Shown one piece after another: positions 2 through 64,000 of a stretch of DNA of 64,000 nucleotides (positions are counted from its first letter, which is position 1; each line of letters opens with the position of its first letter). The translations under genes were made by a program, and so were the position numbers. The notes below the pieces were generated by a model. That model ran no database searches, was not told the origin of the DNA, and saw nothing but the letters and a program-made list of their open reading frames with translations. The stretch is from an uncultured Ruminiclostridium sp. (GTDB lineage Bacteria > Bacillota > Clostridia > Oscillospirales > Ruminococcaceae), in the NCBI GenBank assembly GCA_934490165.1, contig CAKSTB010000008.1, forward strand, positions 3,095-67,094. The letters run 5' to 3'.

Positions 2-3000
2 ATGGTGGAGCAGAATGAGCTGATTTACTTTGAGACATATACCGGTCGCACCACAGGCAAAATAGCCGATGTAGGGACAGCTAACAGCCTGCAAAGCTTT
101 ATATCCAATAGCAACACCGCCTCGGACAGTTCACTGCCCAATGTGGATATAAGTGCTTTCAGCAACTATGCCTATATACAGGCTGTGGCATTTGACCCAT
201 ACGGCACGGGACGGCGCGACCACATCGTATATGTTGGTCTGAACCGCGGCGATCGAAAGGTATATGCCCATGTTTACGATGCGGTAAACAACCGTTTTGT
301 CGGCTCACAGGTAGTCGGCGAAATGGAGTGGATCTATGATAACAAAGGTAATCTTGTGGTGGAAAACTACTACTCCAACAACCTGATCACGGTTGCGGCG
401 GGTGACTTTGACAACGACGGTAAAGACACCATTATCGTCTATGTGCCGAACAGCAGTACCTCTATAGGGAAAATTTTCGATGTAAATAACTCCGAAAGGA
501 ATAATAATCTTGGCTGCTTTATCAAGGAATATTCCTTTGACAACGGCACCTTAACAATGCGTAGCAACACAGAAAACAGTCAGGGATACAACGAAATCGG
601 AGACAGGCTGCTTCACGATGAATATATCAAGCGGTATCATACACAAAACGGCGGGGGTACTTTGGATTATATCCGATCAAGTGATTCCGAATACAACCAT
701 ATTCGCAAACTGTATGTCCGAATGCGCGTCGGCGACTTTAACGGTGATGGCATTGACGATCTCGCCGTTTTATCTCTTCCTATCAGTGAGCTCGCGCGTG
801 AAGAGAATCTGGGTTATTTGACACCGCAGCTCAAGATAAAATATGGCACTAGGACGGGCTATAACTCAAATTTGTCTGACAGTATCGTCGATCAAAGAGC
901 CGACGAAGTTTACAATATAATGGATAAAACTCACCCGGACAGTAACGGCAAATATAGTGCTACGACCATCGACGCCGTTTCACTTGTCAGCGGCGACTTC
1001 AACAACGACGGCTACGAGGATCTCGCTGTTGTCGGAGTAGAAAAGAGCGGCACGGTAGACCCAAATAATTCCATATCGGCAATTATAGGAGGTCTTATAC
1101 TCCAGAATGAAGAAAAATTTGCATACTCTGTGCTTCTCAACAATCATAACAAGGGCTTTGCGCAAGGCGCTGTAAAGACCATGAACTCCAATAAATGGAC
1201 GCAGGAAAGTGGCGATGATAAGATTGTCATGTATACAACCGCAGAGGCGGTCGCTTTCGACGGCAGTACCGTAGCTGACTACCTCTTTCTCAATGGCTCA
1301 ATCTATACATACAACGCTACCGCAGGTCAATTTGATGCAGTTTCTTCCAAGGGCTATTCGGTGAGTGGATTCCAGTTCACCGATGGACTTGGCGGCAAGC
1401 AAGAATTGTTCCGCTCGGTTGCCGTGGGTAATTTTGACGGAAATACCGCCGGCAGAGAGCAGATCGTGTTTGTTGCTTCCTGCCGAGACAAGGACGATGT
1501 TTATTCCTTCAAAAAGGGTATGATCACCGGCGTATATAGCGATTCTAACGACGATTACAGCACTGCGACCGGCTTTAAAACAACACTCTCCGATTGGGGT
1601 CCGAACAAAGCAGACGGCGGTTATAAGGGCGGCGGTGCACAGGTACTGCTGACTGCCTGCGACCGTGATCAGGACGGCGTTATCGCACGATATAAGGGCG
1701 TGAGCTACGCCTACAGCGACCCCGAGGTCAAGGCAGTCATGCAGGCGGCGCCCTACTTTGCGGCACTGGGCGATTCGGCAAATAACGAGACCGACTATAC
1801 CATAACCGAAAGCTACGAGTTGGAGCAGTCCTCTTCAAAAAATGTTTCCTACAGCGTGGGTATGTCCTACAGCTACGGCGGACTGTTTGCGCCTTTTGAG
1901 TTGGAGATCTCTGCCGGCTATTCTCTTGAATGGAGCAAGAGCTTTTCCGAAGCACTGGAAACCGAATACGCCATGACCGTCAAGGCGCAGGCGTATAATA
2001 CGGCACTGGTTGCAAGAACGCCGGTATTTGTCTACTGCTATGAGGTGCTGAACGAAAACGGCGAGTGGTCGGACGAGACGGCAATAAGCCTGTCTATCCC
2101 ACAGCAGCCGGTGTATCAGCAGATGAGCATTGACGATTACAACAGCTTTGCCGAAGAATACAACTCCTATATGGAGAAAAAGGGCAATCGCGCCATCACT
2201 AAGGAGTCGGATAAGACCTCAAAAGACGAAGCCTGCTATTATCCCCTTGAGCAGATCAACGAAGAAGAAAACTGGCTGAACAGCAACGAGGGCAACCCTT
2301 ATATGTACAATCAGCTGGGCTGGGGCGCATACAGTGCACTCGGCGCTCAGCAGCTCAGCCAGAACACTATCCGTCTGGGCTATGCGGGAGGTCTGAATGA
2401 GGTTTCCTATTCAAAGAGCAATATCAAATCGGTTTCTGAGGAGATTTCTCACGGATTTTACTTCAACTTCTCCATCAGCTTCGGTGTATTCGGCGATGGT
2501 ATACTATTCTCGCATGATGTTGGTTTTGAAACCAGTCTGAGCTACAGCAACGGTTCGGGCGTTTCGACCACGAAAACCTCCTCGCAGGGTTGCATCGGTG
2601 CGGTAAACGATATTGACGGTCCTGCTCTTGCCGAGGAAGGAATCCCCGCAAGTATTTACACACAGTACACATTCGACTGGACGCTGGGACAGTGGTTCCG
2701 TCACCTCTACGGTGAGGAAGGCAACAAGACTGTCTTTATCGGCTACAGCCTATCAAATGTCAGCACACCCGCTCCTGCGGTAGATGATCTGGAAGCTGAA
2801 CTGTTCGCAGATGACGCAGTGCGCCTTACATGGTCTCAGCCCGACAAGACTCCCGGTTGGCCGGAGGTAGAGGGCTACTATGTGTACAGCATTGAAAACG
2901 GCGAGTATACGAAAATTTCCGAGATGCTCTCCGCCGACACGACCTCCTATGACATTGAAAACATGAAAACCAACACCGACTTTAGCTTTGTTGTTACCTC

Positions 3001-6000
3001 TGTTTGCAAGGTGGACGGCAAAGAAAATGAAAGCACATGGTCGAATATCGCCGAGGTTACAACGGCAAAGAAAGACTATAAGGTCAACTACTCTGTCGAT
3101 AACGAAGATGCCGCCGATATTAAGGTGCGCCATCTCGGTAATGTTGAGATCAAGTCGGGAGATGAGATAAGCGAGAGCGAGATCATCAAGGTAAAGGTCA
3201 CCCCAAAGAGCAAACTGTATGAGCTTGTATCCATGACGCTTGACAACGGCGGAGAATCAATGATATTCACGCCGGAAGCAGACGGAACTATCGAATGTGC
3301 CTTTACCCTGAACGGTGAAGCAAATATTCAGGTTTCAACCAAGCGTGCGGTAACTTCCGCTCAGGTCACATTTACCGATACATATACGGCGGACGGCGCG
3401 GTAATAGGTACGGTCAGTGCGACAGTGGGAGATGCTCCGCTGAGCGCTCCCGGCGGCACAGTCACCGATGATGTAACATTTGCCGCAGTACCGAAAAACG
3501 GCTACGGACTGAAATCGTGGAAGATCACCGATGCGGATAACAATACCGTAACCATAGATGCCGCAGGCTCAGACACCTATACTCTGAGATTGGCATCGGA
3601 AGAATACACTGTTGAAGCAGAATTTGCGTCTCTTTCCGAGATTGGCAAGCAGGTAAAGGTAAATATCCCCGCAGAGGGCGGTACAATAGAGATCACCGAC
3701 GCAAACGACGATATTATAGAGCTGAATGACAACAACAGCGTGTATGTTCCTGTTGATTGTGAACTGACATTCACTGTCAAAGCTGACGCAGACTGCAAAT
3801 TCCGCGCGTGGACAGGCGACGCCGAGGGTCAAAGCGGCGAGAGCTTCACTATGACTATTACAAAGGACACTGAGATCGGTGCAGAATTTGATGTTCCTGT
3901 CCGTCTGATGCTGACCTATTCTGCCGCAAGCGGCGAACAGACAGGTGCAGTGGCAACCAAGCAGGGTTATCAGTCGGGTACGGGTGTTATTGTCGGCACA
4001 AAAATTGTTCTTACCGCACAGGCGGCAGAAAATTACAGAGTGCAGAAGCTCGTCATTACCCGTGACGACAAGGTCGACACCATAACGACAGATGATAAGC
4101 TGTACAGTCAGTACGATTATGAAATCGTTATGGATACCAAAACCGACATTCAGGTATATTTCACCGAAATCGAGCAATATACGGTTACAGTAGACAGCAT
4201 CGAAAATGCCGATATGACTGTTAAAAATGGAAACGAAGATTTTGTAAGCGGTAATACCGTTCGCTACGGAGATGAGATCACCGTTACAGTAAAGCCGAAT
4301 GAAAACTACCGCCTTGCAGACACGGCTTCGTGGATCGACAACAACGACGGCAGTTATACCTATAAGACAGGTGCTGTCAAAGCGAATACAAACATCTCGG
4401 TAAAAATTGAGAAGATACCGGAATATACGGTTACATTCCCCACAACTATTGAGGGCTGTATCCTTTCGGTTAAAAACGGTAAAGAAAAGATCTCAAGCGG
4501 CGACAAGCTCCTTGAGGGAACACAGCTTACCGCTACCGTGACACTTGACCCGACCTTTATTCTCAAGGGCTGGTACATCGGCGGCGAACTGCTTTCCGAA
4601 ACAAACAAAAACGAAATAACATTTACTGTAGACAGCGATATACTCCTTACTGTCATAGTGACAGATGTAAAGGGCGATACAGGTGACACCGGAGTCGGTG
4701 TAAAATCCGTTGTCATTGACGAAGACGGAAAACTGATCATTACTCTGACCGATGACTCTGTACTTGATCTCGGAAAAGTAACAGGAGAAAAAGGCGATAC
4801 CGGCATAGGCGTTAAGTCGGTAACGGTTGACGAGGACGGAAACCTTATTATCACTCTGACCGACGACACCGTGCATAACGCAGGCAAGGTAACAGGAGAT
4901 AAAGGCAATCAAGGCGACAAGGGCGATACCGGTGCTACAGGCGTAGGTGTTAAGTCGGTAACTATCGACGAAGACGGAAACCTTATTATCACTCTTACTG
5001 ATGACACTGTGCATAATGCAGGCAAGGTAACCGGAGATAAAGGTGAACAAGGTGATAAGGGCGACAAAGGCGATATCGGTGCTACAGGTGTAGGTGTTAA
5101 ATCGGTAGTGATCGATGATGACGGAAACCTCATAATCACTCTGACTGATGATACAGTGCATAACCTCGGTAAGGTCACCGGAGATAAAGGCGAACAAGGC
5201 GATAAGGGCAACAACGGCGATAAAGGTGACAAGGGCGACAAGGGCGACAAGGGCGATACCGGTGCTACAGGCGTAGGCGTTAAATCGGTAACGATCGACG
5301 AAGACGGAAACCTTATTATCACCCTGACCGATGACACCGTGCATAACGCAGGCAAGGTTACGGGAAACAACGGTAACAATGGCGAAAACGGCGCTTGGGG
5401 AGTAGGCGTGAAGTCGATAACGATCGATGATGACGGAAACCTCATAATCACATTGACAGATGATACAATGTATAACCTCGGTAAGGTGACCGGAGTTAAG
5501 AACGAAAAAGGCGACAAGGGCGACACCGGAAACACCGGTGCTGACGGAATCGGCATTGCGAATGCTGTTGTAGATGAAAACGGTAATCTGATCATTACCC
5601 TGTCTGACGGCACTGTGCGCAACTTCGGCAAAATCACAGGAAACAACGGTGACAATGGCGAAAACGGCGCTACTGGCGTAGGCGTAAAATCGGTAACGGT
5701 CGACGAGGACGGAAACCTCATAATCACGCTGACCGATAACACAGTCCATAACGCCGGCAAGGTAATTGCAAGCAACGGTGAAAACGGTAAGAATGGCACT
5801 GACGGAGTCGGCATTGAGAATGCTGTTGTTGATGAAAACGGCAATCTGATCATTACACTGTCAGACGGTACTGTACACAACCTCGGCAAAGTCACCGGAG
5901 AAAAAGGTGACGCAGGCAAGGACGGTCAGGACGGTTCAAACGGCAACGGAATACAATCGGCTGATATTGATGCCGACGGCAATCTGATTATCACGTTTAC

Positions 6001-6319
6001 CGATGGCGTTGTTACCAATCTCGGTAAAATCGTCGGCACTGACGGCAAGAACGGTACTGACGGAAAAGACGGTAAGGACGGCGTTGACGGAAAGAACGGT
6101 ATCGGAATCAAGGGCTGCCGCATTGATGACAACGGCAACCTGATTCTGACACTGACTGACAGTACGACGTTGGACGCGGGCAATATTTCCGCTATCAGCG
6201 ACAACGTTAATGTTTCCAAGCCGCTTGCAACCGCGGCAGTATCCGTTGCGGGCACTTCTCTGCTCTGGAATGTCGTGAGCGTTGCGATCAGTATCATAAG
6301 AAAGAAAAAATTGGTCTGA
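2..6319 (+). CDS. Giant cell-surface protein, 5' end outside the window. Contains FG-GAP/VCBS-like repeats, an Fn3-like domain, InlB-B-repeat-like modules, a collagen-like repeat stalk and a C-terminal TM anchor.
   Basis: Uninterrupted 2105-codon ORF, open at the window start. FG-GAP/VCBS-type loops: GDFDNDGKDTIIV, GDFNGDGIDDLAV, GDFNNDGYEDLAV, GNFDGNTAGREQIVF. Fn3-like segment: AVRLTWSQPD...YYVYS...FSFVVTSV. Several ~70-aa modules end in the pattern G(Y/F)xxxxW (NGYGLKSWKI, CKFRAWTG, FILKGWYI). Gly-X-Y runs are present. The hydrophobic tail TAAVSVAGTSLLWNVVSVAISII is followed by RKKK. No canonical LPXTG. A hairpin terminator follows. Confidence 0.85.
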   Translation: MVEQNELIYFETYTGRTTGKIADVGTANSLQSFISNSNTASDSSLPNVDISAFSNYAYIQAVAFDPYGTGRRDHIVYVGLNRGDRKVYAHVYDAVNNRFVGSQVVGEMEWIYDNKGNLVVENYYSNNLITVAAGDFDNDGKDTIIVYVPNSSTSIGKIFDVNNSERNNNLGCFIKEYSFDNGTLTMRSNTENSQGYNEIGDRLLHDEYIKRYHTQNGGGTLDYIRSSDSEYNHIRKLYVRMRVGDFNGDGIDDLAVLSLPISELAREENLGYLTPQLKIKYGTRTGYNSNLSDSIVDQRADEVYNIMDKTHPDSNGKYSATTIDAVSLVSGDFNNDGYEDLAVVGVEKSGTVDPNNSISAIIGGLILQNEEKFAYSVLLNNHNKGFAQGAVKTMNSNKWTQESGDDKIVMYTTAEAVAFDGSTVADYLFLNGSIYTYNATAGQFDAVSSKGYSVSGFQFTDGLGGKQELFRSVAVGNFDGNTAGREQIVFVASCRDKDDVYSFKKGMITGVYSDSNDDYSTATGFKTTLSDWGPNKADGGYKGGGAQVLLTACDRDQDGVIARYKGVSYAYSDPEVKAVMQAAPYFAALGDSANNETDYTITESYELEQSSSKNVSYSVGMSYSYGGLFAPFELEISAGYSLEWSKSFSEALETEYAMTVKAQAYNTALVARTPVFVYCYEVLNENGEWSDETAISLSIPQQPVYQQMSIDDYNSFAEEYNSYMEKKGNRAITKESDKTSKDEACYYPLEQINEEENWLNSNEGNPYMYNQLGWGAYSALGAQQLSQNTIRLGYAGGLNEVSYSKSNIKSVSEEISHGFYFNFSISFGVFGDGILFSHDVGFETSLSYSNGSGVSTTKTSSQGCIGAVNDIDGPALAEEGIPASIYTQYTFDWTLGQWFRHLYGEEGNKTVFIGYSLSNVSTPAPAVDDLEAELFADDAVRLTWSQPDKTPGWPEVEGYYVYSIENGEYTKISEMLSADTTSYDIENMKTNTDFSFVVTSVCKVDGKENESTWSNIAEVTTAKKDYKVNYSVDNEDAADIKVRHLGNVEIKSGDEISESEIIKVKVTPKSKLYELVSMTLDNGGESMIFTPEADGTIECAFTLNGEANIQVSTKRAVTSAQVTFTDTYTADGAVIGTVSATVGDAPLSAPGGTVTDDVTFAAVPKNGYGLKSWKITDADNNTVTIDAAGSDTYTLRLASEEYTVEAEFASLSEIGKQVKVNIPAEGGTIEITDANDDIIELNDNNSVYVPVDCELTFTVKADADCKFRAWTGDAEGQSGESFTMTITKDTEIGAEFDVPVRLMLTYSAASGEQTGAVATKQGYQSGTGVIVGTKIVLTAQAAENYRVQKLVITRDDKVDTITTDDKLYSQYDYEIVMDTKTDIQVYFTEIEQYTVTVDSIENADMTVKNGNEDFVSGNTVRYGDEITVTVKPNENYRLADTASWIDNNDGSYTYKTGAVKANTNISVKIEKIPEYTVTFPTTIEGCILSVKNGKEKISSGDKLLEGTQLTATVTLDPTFILKGWYIGGELLSETNKNEITFTVDSDILLTVIVTDVKGDTGDTGVGVKSVVIDEDGKLIITLTDDSVLDLGKVTGEKGDTGIGVKSVTVDEDGNLIITLTDDTVHNAGKVTGDKGNQGDKGDTGATGVGVKSVTIDEDGNLIITLTDDTVHNAGKVTGDKGEQGDKGDKGDIGATGVGVKSVVIDDDGNLIITLTDDTVHNLGKVTGDKGEQGDKGNNGDKGDKGDKGDKGDTGATGVGVKSVTIDEDGNLIITLTDDTVHNAGKVTGNNGNNGENGAWGVGVKSITIDDDGNLIITLTDDTMYNLGKVTGVKNEKGDKGDTGNTGADGIGIANAVVDENGNLIITLSDGTVRNFGKITGNNGDNGENGATGVGVKSVTVDEDGNLIITLTDNTVHNAGKVIASNGENGKNGTDGVGIENAVVDENGNLIITLSDGTVHNLGKVTGEKGDAGKDGQDGSNGNGIQSADIDADGNLIITFTDGVVTNLGKIVGTDGKNGTDGKDGKDGVDGKNGIGIKGCRIDDNGNLILTLTDSTTLDAGNISAISDNVNVSKPLATAAVSVAGTSLLWNVVSVAISIIRKKKLV
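4670..6190 (+). repeat. 11 in-frame tandem units: a ~32-aa module (GVGVKSVTIDEDGNLIITLTDDTVHNAGKVTG) alternating with variable-length collagen-like Gly-X-Y linkers (GDKGEQGDKGDKGDTGAT and similar).
   Basis: I counted 11 module copies in the translation. Several units are near-identical at the nucleotide level, for example around 4920-5050 versus 5260-5345. Gly-X-Y linker length varies from about 4 to about 10 triplets. Confidence 0.9.
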
Positions 6320-10290: not shown

Positions 10291-10466
10291 GCTGATTTGC
10301 GGGGATGCTGGAATCGGCAGACAGGCAAGCTTGAGGTGCTTGTGTCAGTATTGGCGTGTGGGTTCAAGTCCCATTTCCCGCACCACGAAAAAGCCACATT
10401 TGTCTTTAGACGAATGTGGCTTTTTCAATTAAATCCGTCCTACTGACGGAATAAATCTTCCTTACG
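10291..10466. repeat. Inverted-repeat arm 1: tRNA-Leu plus its terminator plus about 80 nt of downstream flank. Its partner is at 40775-40950.
   Basis: By-eye alignment to the reverse complement of 40775-40950. The 87-nt tRNA is identical. The flank differs by one substitution and two 1-nt indels within the terminator hairpin and by about 2 changes further downstream. Confidence 0.9.
10299..10385 (+). tRNA. tRNA-Leu (anticodon GAG), class II, with encoded CCA.
   Basis: Acceptor stem GCGGGGA/TTCCCGC (one G-U). D stem CTG/CAG. Anticodon stem CAAGC/GCTTG with loop TTGAGGT. Long variable arm. T arm GTGGG-TTCAAGT-CCCAT. Discriminator A plus CCA. Confidence 0.9.
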
Positions 10467-12891: not shown

Positions 12892-13242
12892 GGGGCCGTA
12901 AAGGTTTCGACGGGGGTTGTGAACCCGGCTAAGCACGCAGAGATCGCCTTATCTCTTTAAACGGGGCATTTTTAAAATTAAACGCAGACAATAGATCTGA
13001 ATTAGTAGCTGCCTAAGTGCGCTACCGTCCTTGTAGAGAGCGCTGTGGCTCTATAAAGGGCGTCGACTAACAGCCAATGTTTTCGGTGAGAGTCCTGTAA
13101 CCGTCAACACATCAAAGGACTACCGGACTTCTATCCTGTGAGTCGGAGCGGAGAAAGGGAATTTCAAAAGACTTCACTAAGCGTGTAGAAAGGTTGGCGG
13201 ATCGGTTTTCGGACAGGAGTTCGATTCTCCTCGGCTCCACCA
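12892..13242 (+). ncRNA. ssrA: tmRNA (transfer-messenger RNA).
   Basis: The 5' end is GGGGCCGTAAAGGTTTCGACGGGGG. The 3' end is GGACAGGAGTTCGATTCTCCTCGGCTCCACCA, a tRNA-Ala-like T arm and acceptor. The internal tag frame is GCA GAC AAT AGA TCT GAA TTA GTA GCT GCC TAA (12984-13016), giving ADNRSELVAA. A terminator hairpin and T-run follow. Confidence 0.9.
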
Positions 13243-59602: not shown

Positions 59603-59636
59603 AGCATTACCTCTGAATTTGAATTGTGGTTTCAAT

Positions 59637-59686
59637 ATACCCTCACGGGGTATTTTTATTATATACCCCCTTAGGGTATTTGTCAA
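59637..59686 (-). promoter_or_regulatory. cop operon promoter with two CsoR-type operators.
   Basis: Minus strand: TTGACA (59686-59681), 17 nt, TATAAT (59663-59658). Operator 2, ATACCC-CCTTA-GGGTAT (59663-59679), fills the spacer. Operator 1, ATACCC-TCACG-GGGTAT (59637-59653), sits at about +1. The GC-rich ATACCC...GGGTAT dyad matches the CsoR operators I recall from Bacillus and Listeria. Confidence 0.75.
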
Positions 59687-59728
59687 GAGTTTTTTAAAAA
59701 ACAAAAAAATGTTGCGCCGCACTGTGAC

Positions 59729-59854
59729 AGCTCCCTTTACACAAGGGAGCCAAGTATTGTGTTGGCTATAAAACACACAAACGATTGTGTTTCAAATCCC
59801 GTTATAAACGGAAACTGTTTTCAGCGGTGCTAGCGATACATTCTATTATACTGC
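59729..59854 (+). repeat. Repeat family U, copy 1. This is the short form, lacking the ~129-nt 'ext' segment.
   Basis: AGCTCCCTTTACACAAGGGAGCCAAGTATTGTGTTGGCTATAAAACACACAAACGATTGTGTTTCAAATCCCGTTATAAACGG, joined directly to AAACTGTTTTCAGCGGTG...TATACTGC. It aligns with 60125-60209 plus 60339-60378. Confidence 0.85.
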
Positions 59855-60124
59855 CGCATTCTTAAATATGCTCTAACAATTTAATAAAAAACTACACGCT
59901 ACGCCAAGCACTGATTTTTAGCTCCCTTGCCAAAGGGAGCTGGCTTGCGGCAAGGCTTGCTTGTTTTCAATACAATCATATTCAGCGATGCTTACACCGT
60001 TCATATTACACATACCTTATCTGCCGTCAAGACTGAGGGATCGCTTGCTATTAACTTTTTCGCTTCTGCCATCACCTCCGCTAACAATCCCTCAAGAGTT
60101 GGCTGAGTTTAACTCAGCAACAGA

Positions 60125-60378
60125 AGCTCACCTTTACACAAGGGAGCCAAGTATTGTGTTGGCGATAAGACACACAAACGATTGAGTTTCAAGTCCCGTT
60201 ATAAGCGGGTCGCTGACGCTCACTTAGTCCCATTTTAGTACAGATATCTTAGGATAGTAGCGTTCTTTTTTGATAGTCGGTGATAATGCAGTTGCACTGA
60301 TACACTCACGAAATAATTAACACCTTGTCGGTGCGGATATGTTTTCAGCGGTGTTGGCTGTATGTTTCATAATACTGC
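60125..60378 (+). repeat. Repeat family U, copy 2. This is the long form and the left arm of foldback unit Y.
   Basis: Same core as copy 1, plus 'ext' (about 60210-60338). The reverse complement of 60681-60897 aligns along the core, ext and the TGTTTTCAGCGGTG tail. Confidence 0.85.
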
Positions 60379-60426
60379 TTTATCGGGAATGTGCTGTAAT
60401 GAGAATTATTGCTATATATAAAAGGT

Positions 60427-60569
60427 GGGGTGTGACGCGACCCGAAAAAGGTGAGTCGAAGCGCAAAGATAGTGCGTACGGCTCACTTTGATAGAAGGCT
60501 ACCGATAGTTCTTTTTGTCGGATAGCACTTCTCGGGTTCGCTATTCTGTGCGATAACGTTGCTACTATG
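60427..60569 (+). repeat. Repeat family B, copy 1, the structured core inside unit Y.
   Basis: Aligns with the reverse complement of 61019-61231. Contains the hairpin GTGAGTCG...CGGCTCAC (60451-60486), enclosed by ACCCGA (60440-60445) / TCGGGT (60532-60537). Confidence 0.8.
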
Positions 60570-60680
60570 TTCGAGGGAGGCAACCAAAGCTACTAGGAAG
60601 AGCCTGGAACTGTGACACAATTCCTCAGTTTATCAAATTACATTAAAATTGCAATGTAATATATTGTAAAAATGTCAAAA

Positions 60681-60897
60681 CAATAAATATATCACCAACA
60701 ACGCTGAAAACAATTTCGGAGCGGATAAGGAGTTAGTAATTTCGTGAGTGTATCATTACAACTGCACTGTCACCGAAATTTCCAAAAGACGTACTATCCC
60801 AAGATATCTGTACAGTCCCCCGGGTCGAACAGAGCGGAGCGTCCCGCTTATACCGACTTTTTAAACACAATCGTTTGTGTATCTTATTGCCAACACC
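60681..60897 (-). repeat. Repeat family U, copy 3. Long form, inverted, the right arm of foldback unit Y.
   Basis: The reverse complement reads GGTGTTGGCAATAAGATACACAAACGATTGTGTTTAAAAAGTCGGTATAAGCGGGACGCT...GTACAGATATCTTGGGATAGTA...GATACACTCACGAAAT...AAATTGTTTTCAGCGTTGTTGG, colinear with copy 2. It lacks the 5' AGCTCCC hairpin. Confidence 0.85.
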
Positions 60898-60960
60898 CCA
60901 TTATGGCAGAAGAGATGAGGAGTCAGGAAAGTGGGAGCGCGAGGGAGAAAACCTAAGGGG
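60898..60960 (-). repeat. Repeat family D, inverted copy, the left arm of foldback unit X.
   Basis: The reverse complement CCCCTTAGGTTTTCTCCC...CTTTCCTGACTCCTCATCTCTTCTGCCATAATGG aligns with 61235-61337, which carries an extra internal segment of roughly 40 nt. Confidence 0.8.
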
Positions 60961-61017
60961 AGAGGGGAAAGCGCCTTTGGAGCGCCTTCCTCTCTCCCCT
61001 TGGGTTGTCTCCCTCGC
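60939..61017. repeat. 79-nt imperfect hairpin C.
   Basis: Outer stem GCGAGGGAGA (60939-60948) / TCTCCCTCGC (61008-61017). Inner stem AAGGGGAGAG.../...CTCTCCCCTT. Its left arm overlaps D. Confidence 0.8.
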
Positions 61018-61018
61018 A

Positions 61019-61231
61019 CATAGCAGCAACGTTATTAAATAGAATAGCGAACCCGAAAAGTGCTGTCCCGCAAAAGGCACTATCGGTAGCCTGCTATCAT
61101 TGTTAATTACTAAAACGTTATAACAGAAGTACACAAAAACAGACTTTCTCAACATATCAAAAAAGTGAGCCGAGCGCACTATTTTTAGCGCTTCGACTCA
61201 CTTTTTCTTTTCCGGGCTGTGACACAGCCCC
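61019..61231 (-). repeat. Repeat family B, copy 2. Inverted, inside unit X, with an extra internal segment of about 65-70 nt.
   Basis: The reverse complement is colinear with 60427-60569. The core hairpin GTGAGCCGAGCGC...GCGCTTCGACTCAC (61165-61201) is flanked by an A-run and a T-run, so it looks like a bidirectional terminator. Confidence 0.8.
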
Positions 61232-61234
61232 GTA

Positions 61235-61337
61235 CCCTTAGGTTTCCTCCCAAATCAGTTATTCCTCTGGAGCGACGAGAGGAGCGGGAGCATTGCTTTT
61301 GCCGCTTTCCTGACTCCTCACCTCTTCTACCATATAG
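61235..61337 (+). repeat. Repeat family D, direct copy, the right arm of foldback unit X.
   Basis: CCCTTAGGTTTCCTCCC...CTTTCCTGACTCCTCACCTCTTCTACCATATAG. Confidence 0.8.
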
Positions 61338-61605
61338 AAACCTCCTTGACTTAATTATAGCATTTTATGGTTAATTTGTCAACTTTTTCACTTACAAATG
61401 TGCTGTTTGCACATAAACAGATAATAACGTTCAGTTACCCGAGAACATTTAAGCCGACCACACAATTATATATACAGCGCAATTTCTACTATATATCCAA
61501 AAACGCAAGGTCTGCAAAATGAAAAATCGTTAATATTTAAGCCGCGGATTTGTTGACTTGACGGCTTTATTGTGATAAAATTATTCTCGTAAAAGTCCGC
61601 AAACC

Positions 61606-61681
61606 GGTTAGCATTGTGCATTTTGGTTAGCGGTAGCTAATTGAGTTAGGTTTATGTAATTTAGTTAGCGTTCACTAATCA
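61606..61681 (+). repeat. Four direct repeats with core RGTTAGS, spaced exactly 19 bp apart, upstream of the ABC transporter.
   Basis: GGTTAGC at 61606, GGTTAGC at 61625, AGTTAGG at 61644 and AGTTAGC at 61663. The rest of each 19-mer is degenerate. The last repeat ends about 50 nt upstream of ATG 61733. Confidence 0.8.
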
Positions 61682-61732
61682 AGCTATATCGGCGGACTGT
61701 GTGAACGAAGAATATGAAAGGAAAAATGTAAA

Positions 61733-62431
61733 ATGTTTCTTACTATCAAAGACATAAGAAAGCACTTTGGCGAGGGCGACAGCCGCGTTGAAGTTCTGAA
61801 CGGCATTGACGCAGAGATCGAAAAGGGTGAGATATGCGTTCTGCTCGGTCCGTCGGGCTCGGGCAAATCCACACTGCTTAATATCATAGGCGGCATCGAC
61901 AGTGCCGACAGCGGATATATCGCGATAAACGGCGAAAAGACAGCGGATATGAACGAGAAGAAGCTGACGCTGTATCGCAGAAAGCACCTCGGTTATATAT
62001 TCCAGCAGTACAACCTGATACCTAATCTGAATATCAAGGAAAATGTTGAGATCGGTGCATACTTAAGCGATAATCCGCTTGACACGGACGAGATACTGAA
62101 AACGCTCGGTCTGTATGAGCACCGTCACAAGCTCCCGAATCAGCTGTCGGGCGGTCAACAGCAGAGAACGGCTATCGGCAGAGCTATTATAAAGAACCCC
62201 GATATACTGCTGTGCGACGAGCCTACGGGTGCACTTGACTACAAGACATCAAAGGATATACTTAAGCTTATAAGCGATGTCAACAAGAAGTTCGGCAACA
62301 CTGTCGTAATGGTAACTCACAATGACGCTATCAAAAATATGGCGGACAGAGTAATCAAGCTGCGTGACGGTATGATAAGAAAGAACTATCTCAATGAGAA
62401 CAAGATCGCCGCAGAAGATCTTGACTGGTAA
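61733..62431 (+). CDS. ABC transporter ATP-binding protein (MacB/LolD/FtsE-like).
   Basis: Walker A GPSGSGKST. Signature LSGGQQQR. Walker B ILLCDEPTGALD. 232 aa. Confidence 0.92.
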   Translation: MFLTIKDIRKHFGEGDSRVEVLNGIDAEIEKGEICVLLGPSGSGKSTLLNIIGGIDSADSGYIAINGEKTADMNEKKLTLYRRKHLGYIFQQYNLIPNLNIKENVEIGAYLSDNPLDTDEILKTLGLYEHRHKLPNQLSGGQQQRTAIGRAIIKNPDILLCDEPTGALDYKTSKDILKLISDVNKKFGNTVVMVTHNDAIKNMADRVIKLRDGMIRKNYLNENKIAAEDLDW

Positions 62432-62442
62432 GGGGGATAACG

Positions 62443-64000
62443 ATGAGAAATCCTCTTGTTAAACGTCTGCCGAGCGAATTTAAAAACGAGCTTGGTAAGT
62501 ACATAGTTATCTTCTTATTTATGGTTCTTTCCGTGTCGTTTGTATCGGGCTGGAACGTTGCGGGCGGCAGTATGGCTACCGCATATGATGAGAGCTTTGA
62601 AAAGTACAGCATCGAGGACGGTAACTTTGAACTGTACGCTAAGGCTGACGATAAGCTTTTAAAGGCAGTAGAAGACAGCGATAAGTATGACGCGAAGATA
62701 TACGAGAACTTCTATGTTGAATTTCCGACCAAGGAAGTTGACAGTACACTGCGTATATTCAAAAAGCGTGCCGATATCAACCTTGAGTGCCTTATGGACG
62801 GTGAATTTCCGTCAAGCGACACTGAAATAGCTATCGACAGAATGTATGCCGATAACAACAGTCTTAAGACAGGCGACAAGCTGACACTTCACGGCAAGGA
62901 ATACAAGATATGCGGACTGGTCGCTCTATCGGATTACAGTGCACTGTTTTCAAGCCCGTCTGATATGATGTTCGACTCTATCAAGTTCGGTGTTGCCATT
63001 GTAACACCCGATACATTCAAGGAGTATCCCGAGGACAAGATCCACTATGTTTACTCGTGGAAATATGCCGAGCGTCCCGCAGACGATGCAAAGGCAAAGG
63101 TACTGTCCGAGGACTTCCTTGATAAGCTGTCCGAGGAAGCGCCTAAATATATGAATGCGGTTACGGGCTACATTCCCGAATACACAAACCAGGCTATCTT
63201 ATTCACCGGTGACGATATAAAGGGCGATACGACCTTTATACAGATGTTTCTTTATATAATCGTGGTTATCATCGCATTCATCTTTGCAATAACGACTTCA
63301 AACACGATCGCAAGGGAAGCAGGCGTTATAGGTACGCTCCGTGCGACAGGCTATACACGGTGGGAGATAGTACGGCACTATCTGGCGCTCCCGATGCTTG
63401 TAGTATTCTTAGGTGCGGCAGTCGGAAATGTGCTCGGATATACATTCCTCAAGGACTATGCGGCAAGTGCATATTACGGAAGCTACAGCCTGCCGACATA
63501 TGTAACGCTGTGGAATCCGCAGGCATTTATAAATACAACGATAATCCCGATCATAATCGTATTTATTATTGACCTTGTAATGCTGACAAGAAAGCTCAGC
63601 CTTTCACCTCTTCAGTTTATCCGTCATGACCTTTCGAGAAGAAAGAAGAAAAAGGCGTTCAGGCTGAACACGAAGATCGGCATTATGAAGCGTTTCAGGC
63701 TGCGTGTGCTGTTTCAGAATATGCCGAACTATATTATAATGATCATAGGTGCACTGCTCGGAAACATTCTTGTGATGTTCGGACTTGTTTTAGGTCCTGT
63801 GCTCGACAGCTATCAGCAGGAGATAACGACCAATCTGCTTGCGGATCACCAGTATCTTCTGAAGGCTCAGGTCGAAACGGAAAACAAGGACGCTGAAAAG
63901 TTTTCCGCAACGACCCTCAAAACTATCGAGGGTACACTCAAAAGCGAGGAGATAACCGTTTACGGCATTGCTAAGGACAGCAAGTATGTCGATATTTCAC
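62443..64000 (+). CDS. ABC transporter permease with FtsX-like domains, 3' end outside the window. It is not in the supplied ORF track.
   Basis: ATG 62443 lies 5 nt after GGGGGATAA. I translated the frame by hand and found it open to the window end. Translation begins MRNPLVKRLPSELKNELGKYIVIFLFMVLSVSFVSG. A large extracytoplasmic loop is followed by the FtsX-type segment TSNTIAREAGVIGTLRATGYTRWEIVRHYLALPMLVVFLGAAVGNVLGY. Confidence 0.85.
   Translation, partial: MRNPLVKRLPSEFKNELGKYIVIFLFMVLSVSFVSGWNVAGGSMATAYDESFEKYSIEDGNFELYAKADDKLLKAVEDSDKYDAKIYENFYVEFPTKEVDSTLRIFKKRADINLECLMDGEFPSSDTEIAIDRMYADNNSLKTGDKLTLHGKEYKICGLVALSDYSALFSSPSDMMFDSIKFGVAIVTPDTFKEYPEDKIHYVYSWKYAERPADDAKAKVLSEDFLDKLSEEAPKYMNAVTGYIPEYTNQAILFTGDDIKGDTTFIQMFLYIIVVIIAFIFAITTSNTIAREAGVIGTLRATGYTRWEIVRHYLALPMLVVFLGAAVGNVLGYTFLKDYAASAYYGSYSLPTYVTLWNPQAFINTTIIPIIIVFIIDLVMLTRKLSLSPLQFIRHDLSRRKKKKAFRLNTKIGIMKRFRLRVLFQNMPNYIIMIIGALLGNILVMFGLVLGPVLDSYQQEITTNLLADHQYLLKAQVETENKDAEKFSATTLKTIEGTLKSEEITVYGIAKDSKYVDIS

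Follow-up and report, generated by a model that had tools for sequence, protein, structure and literature searches.

Bacterial interspersed mosaic elements (BIMEs) of Escherichia coli and its relatives are intergenic mosaics of repetitive extragenic palindromic (REP) sequences, or palindromic units (PUs). The Neisseria intergenic mosaic elements (NIMEs), with their dRS3 repeats, and the Correia elements are likewise intergenic repeats. Here, a comparable mosaic is described from an uncultured Ruminiclostridium sp. It is located in a 64-kb window (the whole stretch of DNA that was analyzed; 64,000 nucleotides [nt]), in the spacer between csoR, a gene of a copper-resistance (cop) operon, and a gene encoding an ABC transporter ATPase. 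The spacer is a pile-up in which one near-complete copy of a single non-coding repeat family is accompanied by partial copies, four or five in number, that occur in both orientations. On balance, this family is probably an old and now immobile mosaic repeat of a BIME- or NIME-like kind, with copies piled up at this locus by recombination.

Results

The csoR-ABC spacer consists of copies of one repeat unit

Analysis of the interval between the start of csoR (59602, minus strand) and the start of the ABC ATPase gene (61733, plus strand) revealed only open reading frames (ORFs) of at most 92 amino acids, and the ten longest of them gave no Pfam match at an E value of ≤1. A preliminary description of the window, made from the sequence alone, had likewise reported about 2.1 kb without a credible ORF. 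Between positions 59729 and 61337, repeats make up almost the whole length, and no credible gene is present. Repeat finding and self-BLAST recovered all of the segments named in that description, namely, two direct copies and one inverted copy of segment U, inverted pairs of segments B and D, and a 79-nt hairpin, C. The direct U copies (59734-59811 and 60131-60208) are 94% identical and have tails at 59816-59854 and 60340-60378; the inverted U copy is located at 60685-60898, with arms of 53 to 82 nt that are 74 to 83% complementary. The two B copies (60489-60589 and 60999-61099) are 85% identical over 101 nt and share a further stretch (60446-60489 and 61162-61206). The D pair (60902-60934 and 61302-61334) is 91% identical over 33 nt. 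Hairpin C has two arms of 36 nt (60939-60974 and 60982-61017) that are 89% complementary and enclose a 7-nt loop. The AGCTCCCTT...AAGGGAGCT hairpin, reported to occur three times, was found at 59729, 59920, and 60126, the third copy being degenerate.

Self-BLAST E values of the main repeat pairs ranged from 1e-23 to 1e-8, which excludes chance as the source of these pairs. Outside the spacer, self-BLAST found no additional repeat copy in the window (62 kb). The 2,140-nt spacer was recovered at 99.9 to 100% identity in three independent assemblies (L001, L004, and L009) and is therefore not an assembly artifact, in agreement with the preliminary description, which had seen no obvious artifact.

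That description had treated U, B, C, and D as separate modules. Comparison with other loci revealed that they are successive segments of one unit. In an end-to-end alignment, seven copies from four genomes all show the order B-C-D-U, and BLAST of the window spacer against loci from GTDB genomes showed U, D, C, and B adjoining in fixed order. An nhmmer profile of 604 positions was built from five of the seven aligned copies. Every repeat in the window maps onto parts of this profile, which indicates that U, B, C, and D form one unit. The unit is about 600 nt long, and eight complete units measure 607 to 882 nt with their end hairpins and terminator-like hairpins included.

In the window, the canonical orientation of the unit is that of the minus strand. 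Read in this direction, the unit starts with a terminal hairpin (GGGGTTGTGACACAACCC) and a terminator-like hairpin (AAAAAGTGAGTCG...CGGCTCACTTTTTT), after which an AT-rich stretch leads to the B core. It continues with hairpin C, with D in a form with or without a 62-nt insert (Dlong; two small hairpins), and with U. An AT-rich tail containing the palindrome TTACAAT-N7-ATTGTAA is located 3' of U and precedes a second hairpin with CTGTGA...TCACAG. The two end hairpins are alike and 18 to 19 nt long (GGGGTTGTGACACAACCC and GGAATTGTGTCACAGCTCC) or occur in a version that is 16 bp longer. Each of them is self-palindromic, so that they are simultaneously direct and inverted repeats of each other. 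The TGTGACACA hairpin motif shows no enrichment in the rest of the window (20 matches versus 17.6 expected).

A short form of the unit, H-U, was also identified, in which hairpin H and a CACTGTGAC leader stand in for B-C-D. U1 and U2 of the window belong to this form, and the leader and hairpin H are also found 5' of U-only copies at two other loci (L107 and L099). The parts of the mosaic are listed in Table 1.

Table 1. Parts of the repeat mosaic in the csoR-ABC spacer (window positions 59717 to 61382)
Feature	Position	Strand	Evidence
Leader CCGCACTGTGAC and hairpin H1 (AGCTCCCTTTACACAAGGGAGC), 5' end of short H-U form	59717-59751	+	Repeat families; parallels in L107 and L099
U1, partial U (profile 393-445 and 3' end) with internal deletion of ~125 nt and tail ATTATACTGCCGCATT	59759-59876	+	nhmmer (59759-59811); alignment
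Module X, including second H-type hairpin (59919-59941)	59877-60124	+	Dispersed repeat
Degenerate hairpin H3 and U2, complete U (profile 393-603) with tail	60125-60400	+	nhmmer (60156-60366, score 154.7)
5' part of another copy, ending at left arm of hairpin C	60427-60599	+	nhmmer (60485-60599); inverted repeats
Same copy, terminal hairpin GGGGTGTGACGCGACCC	60427-60443	+	
Same copy, terminator-like hairpin	60445-60489	+	
Same copy, B core (profile 125-239)		+	
Near-complete unit (profile 2-603), without 62-nt Dlong insert	61231 to 60606	-	nhmmer (61230 to 60686, score 519)
Near-complete unit, B-side terminal hairpin	61231-61214	-	
Near-complete unit, terminator-like hairpin	61206-61160	-	
Near-complete unit, AT-rich spacer		-	
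Near-complete unit, B core	61103-60999	-	
Near-complete unit, hairpin C	61017-60939	-	
Near-complete unit, short D	60936-60902	-	
Near-complete unit, U3	60898-60686	-	
Near-complete unit, AT-rich tail		-	
Near-complete unit, terminal hairpin after tail	60624-60606	-	
Hairpin C, 36-bp imperfect arms, 7-nt loop	60939-61017	unstranded	Inverted repeat
D', fragment of further copy (profile 263-389; 3' arm of C, most of Dlong, and D)	61229-61336	+	nhmmer; alignment
Relic DZR (zinc-ribbon) gene signals	61259-61382	-	Promoter scan; intact relatives
Relic DZR promoter, 12/12 TTGACA-17-TGnTATAAT	61382-61354	-	
Relic DZR ribosome-binding site, AAGGAGG	61347-61341	-	
Relic DZR start codon, ATG	61333	-	

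Several of these parts have counterparts in the spacer or at other loci. The tail region of U1 matches that of U2 by BLAST (59809-59876 and 60334-60399). Module X matches six loci at 80 to 90% identity (L026, L032, L057, L092, L111, and L120) and two more at about 75% (L052 and L126), and a tandem pair of X is present in L003. The junction at which the U tail is fused to a terminal hairpin recurs in L095 and L113. The D' fragment ends at the relic ATG and is about 19 profile positions short; the 3' arm of the GAGCATTGC hairpin is among the missing parts.

After some U copies, the AT-rich tail is replaced by a further dispersed module (...CGTAGGGG...CCCGCCCGTTGCAC...) with a hairpin of its own (L009:13186-13295, L029:~4700-4860, L059, and L034:12900-13056). 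The carrier genomes seem to contain several interlinked intergenic repeat modules, i.e., H, X, and the CGTAGGGG/CCCGCCCGTTGCAC module.

The family is dispersed in gut Ruminococcaceae

A pattern search with the U core revealed 19 loci in four GTDB genomes, many of them at contig ends. Ruminococcaceae bacterium UBA6413 contributed 10 loci and a metagenome-assembled genome (MAG) labeled 'Sodaliphilus' contributed 7; the family was also found in Oscillospiraceae UBA11449 and Ruminiclostridium RGIG9130. The 'Sodaliphilus' MAG is probably mis-binned because its contigs carry the cop locus of the window. A metagenome scan yielded 88 loci with 191 profile hits, 23 of which were near full length. Complete U copies numbered 17 in one human-gut assembly of uniform coverage and 9 in UBA6413. 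Per genome, the family amounts to at least 10 to 17 copies, or roughly 15 to 20. The family is restricted to a clade of gut Ruminococcaceae/Oscillospiraceae.

Without exception, the copies are intergenic. Their neighbors are unrelated housekeeping genes, in every relative orientation, and mosaics with the same segments in alternating orientation are present in the window spacer and at other loci. Clustering of 292 proteins encoded within 1.5 kb of copies identified no partner protein, since the only clusters were orthologous loci from several samples. Within this distance, no transposase, recombinase, reverse transcriptase, or other recurrent protein was found. This extends to the family an observation of the preliminary description, which had noted no transposase, integrase, reverse transcriptase, or cas gene next to the repeats; no integrase is located beside the window region, and no cas gene is in the neighborhood.

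The plasmid collection gave no match to the repeat, and the phage collection gave matches to 14 unannotated gut contigs at 66 to 85% identity. Literature keyword searches retrieved nothing relevant to the family. Because Rfam, Pfam, and plasmid matches are lacking, the phage matches are unannotated, and the literature searches were blank, the family appears to be undescribed. The region is not unique, no annotated repeat family accounts for it, and no protein frame emerged from the comparison of copies, so that none of the results that would have contradicted the preliminary description was obtained.

Copies are diverged and occupy the same sites in different strains and species

Within a genome, paralogous copies are 71 to 93% identical (median, 85 to 89%), and no pair reaches 97%. 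In 94 comparisons across samples or strains in which both flanks were available, no site differed by 120 nt or more, as an occupied and an empty site would. Orthologous copies in two species are 87 to 90% identical, compared with 88% for the flanking intergenic DNA and 85 to 90% for the flanking genes. A site beside a gene for a protein of 1,157 amino acids is occupied in two species in which this gene is 77% identical; there, the adjoining spacer can no longer be aligned, and the repeat still aligns at 75 to 91%. Taken together, these findings suggest an old family that keeps to its sites and shows no visible mobility at present.

Signs of transposition were sought at the ends of the copies and around them. 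For eight complete units, the best flanking direct repeat was 0 to 4 nt, the same as for unrelated flanks. No autonomous parent element was found in about 1.1 Mb of flanking DNA from the fetched loci. Nested non-autonomous foldback elements, similar to miniature inverted-repeat transposable elements (MITEs), had been among the candidate explanations of the preliminary description. What stands of this proposal is the dispersed multi-copy family with complete and partial copies in both orientations. In the strict sense, it does not hold, given target-site duplications at chance level, the missing parent element and partner protein, and the uniform occupancy in the 94 comparisons.

Across the alignment of the family, 43% of the columns are invariant, compared with a Poisson expectation of 4%; this figure is inflated by shared ancestry and subfamily structure, and the invariant runs are no longer than in shuffled alignments.

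Rearrangements of the csoR-ABC spacer

Related genomes differ in the gene content of the spacer. In L002 and in UBA6413 (L020), a DZR gene and a Fic gene are positioned between the repeats and csoR, and in the 'Sodaliphilus' MAG (L023), the DZR gene immediately precedes csoR, without an intervening Fic gene. An intact DZR gene with the promoter found in the window is present at L002:7779-8636. In the window itself, the promoter, ribosome-binding site, and ATG of this gene are joined to D' at the microhomology ATGGCAGAA, and the ATG opens an ORF of only 24 codons, which enters repeat D' and the terminator hairpin.

The repeats are rearranged as well. L003, which is 96 to 98% identical to the window lineage, contains an extra H-U1-X unit of 397 nt, and a D-hairpin-D' palindrome centered on the GAGCATTGC hairpin replaces C and B'; no repeat copy is found downstream of FtsX in this locus. 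In L096, U2 is joined straight to the relic promoter. In L002, the ABC-FtsX genes are deleted, and a tail of 58 amino acids of FtsX remains. Fragment ends in the window fall at hairpin C (profile positions 239 and 263) and at D. Ends at palindromes fit recombination or template switching.

In the window lineage, the ABC-FtsX genes (61733-64000) are bracketed by two copies on the same strand (L009, 9498 to 8954 and 14047 to 13447), the second of which is located just past the end of the window. In a sister species, the ABC-FtsX genes follow a metallophosphatase gene, repeats are absent, and the cop operon has the opposite orientation; the ATPase protein is identical, and the DNA of the gene pair is about 86% identical. 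This arrangement suggests that the ABC-FtsX genes were moved by recombination between repeat copies.

The preliminary description had also considered the region as a substrate for recombination or inversion. The structural variants and their breakpoints at palindromes speak for the former; no inversion isomer was found among the spacer variants of related strains.

RNA structure and terminator-like hairpins

Folding of a single copy was compared with that of shuffled sequences and gave z values of -10.4 for the plus strand and -7.8 for the minus strand, with hairpin C and the terminator hairpin contributing most of the difference. A consensus fold of 30 non-redundant copies was weak, with -56 kcal/mol in the canonical and -51 kcal/mol in the reverse orientation over about 500 columns. 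In an alignment of 37 sequences, 97% of the cells in the predicted structure are paired. Changes on both sides of a pair were observed in 7 of 71 pairs, compared with 6.0 ± 0.7 in shuffles (99 of 500 shuffles reached the observed value), and nearly all of them are located in hairpin C. Across the family, clear compensatory changes are limited to this helix, at pairs 112-188 (CG 16/UA 16), 132-168 (GC 16/AU 14), and 144-156 (CG 23/GC 14). An all-against-all scan of columns for covariation was unusable because it was swamped by subfamily structure.

The mismatches in predicted helices were used to compare the two strands. Helices common to both strands contain 13 A.C mismatches and 2 G.U pairs in the canonical orientation; this favors the plus strand of the window, on which these A.C mismatches become G.U pairs. 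The U hairpin and the B-side terminator have their G.U pairs on the canonical strand and favor the minus strand. The strand signals are therefore in conflict, with hairpin C pointing to the plus strand and the other two pointing to the minus strand.

Terminator-like hairpins are located at both ends of the unit and are often bidirectional. On the B side, the hairpin is followed by a T-run facing inward in 49 of 54 copies and outward in 41 of 54. On the U side, the T-run faces outward in 64 of 101 copies and inward in 39. Three divergent copies (L125, L112, and L033) contain, at the position of the B-side hairpin, hairpins of unrelated sequence with T-runs. Neither scanning nor alignments of 45 and 68 distinct flanks revealed a conserved -35/-10 pair in either orientation.

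These data bear on the main rival explanation, according to which the unit is a self-contained, multi-copy gene that specifies a non-coding RNA about 0.5 kb long. The complete copy in the window would be transcribed into a plus-strand RNA that starts in the AT-rich segment near 60640-60695 and ends at an intrinsic terminator at 61160-61211. The conserved TTACAAT-N7-ATTGTAA palindrome in the start region may serve as an operator; from the short H-U copies, shorter minus-strand RNAs would arise. Such a gene would account for the outward T-runs in 41 of 54 distinct copies at the B end and their replacement by unrelated hairpins at the same position, for the conservation of the AT-rich segment and its palindrome upstream of U in 45 distinct copies, and for the plus-strand folding. 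It would also agree with the compensatory pairs of hairpin C and the 13-to-2 mismatch ratio, with loci that are fixed across samples and at least once across species, and with the share of invariant columns. It does not sit well with the weak consensus folding on both strands, the double changes that do not exceed those of shuffles, or the conflicting strand signals. No hexamer pair with the conserved final T of a -10 box is present in either orientation, the orientation relative to neighboring genes varies, many copies have large internal deletions, and orthologous copies have a rate of divergence close to that of the flanking DNA. An Rfam family could not be assigned even at permissive E values (see below). 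We consider such a gene a possible, though rather doubtful, explanation.

More tentative still is the proposal that B-C-D-U represents a new class of bacterial non-coding RNA, large in size (about 0.5 kb) and with at least 15 paralogues per genome in abundant human-gut Ruminococcaceae. The AT-rich palindrome end would then be a regulated promoter, and the csoR-ABC spacer would contain one intact gene and several decayed ones. In a variant of this proposal, the unit could be an overlapping sense/antisense pair, which is conceivable because outward-facing terminators are present at both ends. The cluster of paralogous structured RNA genes suggested in the preliminary description is conceivable but not strongly supported: Rfam gave no match, the consensus fold is weak, and hairpin C accounts for nearly all compensatory changes. 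A mosaic repeat family that carries terminator-like hairpins remains the preferred reading.

Coding capacity and known RNA families

Copies differ by 1-nt insertions or deletions within every candidate reading frame, in agreement with the earlier observation that the listed ORFs are not conserved between copies. In the frame starting at 60744, substitutions have no 3-nt periodicity and show no excess at third positions. Small conserved ORFs and type I toxin-like peptides were ruled out by the indels and the segments missing between copies.

Degraded protein-coding genes or an assembly artifact would be a very improbable source of the region. A gene was truly lost here, as the persisting promoter, ribosome-binding site, and ATG of the DZR gene show, and long palindromes such as hairpin C do give assembly gaps and runs of N in UBA contigs. 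The repeats themselves have no similarity to Pfam families and no codon signature, 2.1 kb is the same in the three independent assemblies, and the unit recurs at more than 100 loci in many samples. This explanation is effectively refuted already. Runs of N were observed within or beside hairpin C in MAG contigs of UBA6413 (L019:~3600, L029, and L030); the repeat, chiefly its 36-bp palindrome, breaks short-read assemblies.

An Rfam scan at gathering scores gave no match in the repeat region, and the only matches in the window were to transfer-messenger RNA (tmRNA) and tRNA. At permissive thresholds (E ≤ 10 for the window and E ≤ 1 for the full copy with insert in L016), most matches were to models of eukaryotic microRNA hairpins and were located on hairpin C. 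The remaining ones were a few weak matches to small RNA, cis-regulatory, and small nucleolar RNA models, all far below the gathering scores. None of the permissive matches was to a family of large bacterial RNAs (ROOL, GOLLD, OLE, or raiA), and the HEARO/IS605-orfB, group II intron, and 6S covariance models gave no match in the Rfam scans. The scan thus bears out the preliminary description, in which the modules could not be assigned to any RNA family.

Further classes of elements were considered and rejected. For a group II intron, suggested by a domain-V-like hairpin, there is neither an Rfam match nor a GNRA loop. A CRISPR array is excluded by the lack of regular short repeats and of a cas gene in the neighborhood; the preliminary description had also seen no CRISPR periodicity, and no periodic array was detected. 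For a remnant of an IS200/IS605 omega RNA or an IS110 bridge RNA, no TnpB, IscB, or IS110 gene is found near any copy, and Rfam gave no match. The most variable 20-nt segment of the unit, considered as a guide, does not surpass control segments in its match to the flanks.

Copies next to phage genes

At five loci (among the group L034, L035, L036, L043, and L106), a copy begins 16 to 35 nt past the stop codon of a GH25 endolysin gene. At the junction between endolysin gene and repeat, a duplicated motif, AACTGTGAC, is present in L106 and L043. L034 contains a 13-kb phage-like cluster with terminase, portal, capsid, tail, holin, and GH25 endolysin genes and with repeat modules at both ends; its recovered contig carries no replication or integration genes. 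Scans of viral contigs gave no hit for U and three hits for B, at locus ends. In the one contig of the phage collection in which the copy could be placed (L125), it is located in the bacterial flank.

The end hairpin may be a phage attachment site. Extended to the whole mosaic, this idea would make the modules scars or sites of site-specific recombination, with the CTGTGAC end hairpins serving as integrase attachment sites and repeated integration and excision shuffling the modules. The motif CTGTGAC/GTCACAG does occur at both ends of the unit, before hairpin H (59717-59729), and at the junctions 60606-60624 and 61214-61231, and the endolysin-adjacent copies, the duplicated AACTGTGAC, and the terminase-to-endolysin cluster of L034 would fit. 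Yet no integrase or recombinase is encoded in or beside the window region or the examined copies, most mosaic junctions coincide with hairpin C, the D hairpin, or microhomologies rather than with CTGTGAC, the second prophage end was not recovered, so that no attL/attR pair is available, and the copy in L125 is 7 kb away from the prophage. Site-specific recombination is therefore an improbable origin of the mosaic, and rearrangement of an old repeat family by other recombination is preferred.

Other features of the window

Upstream of csoR, two copies of ATATACCC-N4/5-GGGTAT were identified (59635-59655 and 59661-59681). They coincide in part with a minus-strand promoter (12/12 TTGACA-17-TATAAT, 59686-59658) and look like a pair of CsoR operators, predicted for the csoR-copA-copZ operon. 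The leader of the ABC ATPase gene (61483-61740) contains 3.1 copies of the 19-nt unit TTTAGTTAGCGTTAACTAA at 61622-61679 and is the only part of the spacer that is conserved in the sister species (about 73%). These repeats may be regulator binding sites or part of a structured leader.

At the other end of the window (2-6319), a surface protein of 2,105 amino acids is predicted, with a long C-terminal array in which collagen-like GDKGD triplets and VKSVTIDEDGNLIITLTDDTVHN units alternate. Repeats within this protein account for extra BLAST matches at 4670-5911. The RNA genes identified with Rfam are a tmRNA gene at 12892-13242 (157.9 bits) and a tRNA gene at 10299-10382 (at gathering score).

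Discussion

The distribution, divergence, and fixed sites of the copies point, with modest confidence, to an old repeat family that no longer moves and whose fragments accumulated in the csoR-ABC spacer through recombination. In the past, the family would have spread either in the form of a non-autonomous element or through duplication with ectopic recombination. Present copies would act mainly as substrates for homologous recombination and for palindrome-driven template switching, and they would provide ready-made hairpin terminators between genes. In the spacer, repeated events of this kind, whose breakpoints lie in hairpin C, the D hairpin, and short microhomologies, would have replaced the zinc-ribbon and Fic genes, left the ABC-FtsX genes between two direct copies, and given rise to the nested direct and inverted fragments.

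Several observations weigh against this explanation. The compensatory changes in hairpin C, the folding of single copies far better than shuffles, and the unrelated T-run hairpins that replace the B-side hairpin in divergent copies would fit an RNA gene as well. No mechanism of spread emerged from the data: transposases are lacking, flanking repeats are at chance level, and no pair of occupied and empty sites was found outside the csoR-ABC locus. Copies of 0.6 kb at sites fixed across species make up about 1% of a small genome, which exceeds the expectation for neutral fossils, and the invariant columns of the alignment exceed the Poisson expectation. The evidence for the translocation of ABC-FtsX is the arrangement of genes and repeats.

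If the preferred explanation is correct, common human and animal gut Ruminococcaceae would carry a clade-specific intergenic repeat family of 0.6 to 0.8 kb. The family would break metagenome assemblies, with copies at contig ends and N gaps at the palindrome, and annotation pipelines should mask or model it. It would place hairpin terminators between genes, and it would mark a recombination hot spot at which DZR and Fic were lost and ABC-FtsX came to lie newly beside the copper-resistance operon. If, instead, the unit is an RNA gene, it would constitute a new large multi-copy RNA class in an abundant and poorly studied gut lineage.

The large RNAs OLE, ROOL, GOLLD, and raiA resemble the unit in their size of about 0.5 to 0.6 kb, their lack of coding capacity, their occurrence in gut and rumen Firmicutes, their extensive conservation of primary sequence, and a flanking intrinsic terminator (PMC12286853, PMC9723947, and PMC10861870). 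They differ from it in having many covarying helices, whereas support for helices is weak here. Their copies number one or few per genome, in contrast to the tens found here, and the unit has no covariance-model match and a variable context and orientation.

The repeat is not a member of the BIME, NIME, Correia, or MITE families because the unit is far longer and because target duplication, a parent element, and polymorphic insertions are lacking. With MITEs, it shares the lack of coding capacity and of a transposase of its own, tens of dispersed copies, derivatives with internal deletions, and similar ends. The "inverted repeats" of the unit, however, are two self-palindromic hairpins of 18 to 19 nt. 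Target-site duplication, a parent insertion sequence in the 1.1 Mb of flanks, near-identical copies, and insertion polymorphism, all of which would be expected of a MITE, were not found.

NIMEs and Correia elements are similar to the repeat in their mosaic blocks bounded by short inverted repeats, strain-variable pile-ups, adjacent phage DNA, and terminator hairpins. Correia elements measure 100 to 155 bp and have true terminal inverted repeats and a TA duplication; the unit described here is four to six times longer. Neither target duplication beyond chance nor polymorphic insertion was found for it.

In comparison with BIMEs, the unit is much larger, about 600 nt with long non-palindromic conserved stretches, whereas REP sequences are palindromes of 20 to 40 nt. 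It is present in tens rather than hundreds of copies, and its hosts are a clade of Clostridia. No REP-associated transposase (RAYT) was seen, although no search aimed at it was made. Like BIMEs, the repeat is intergenic and multi-copy, combines a few segments in direct and inverted orientation, contains palindromic hairpins capable of acting as terminators, and is a site of rearrangement.

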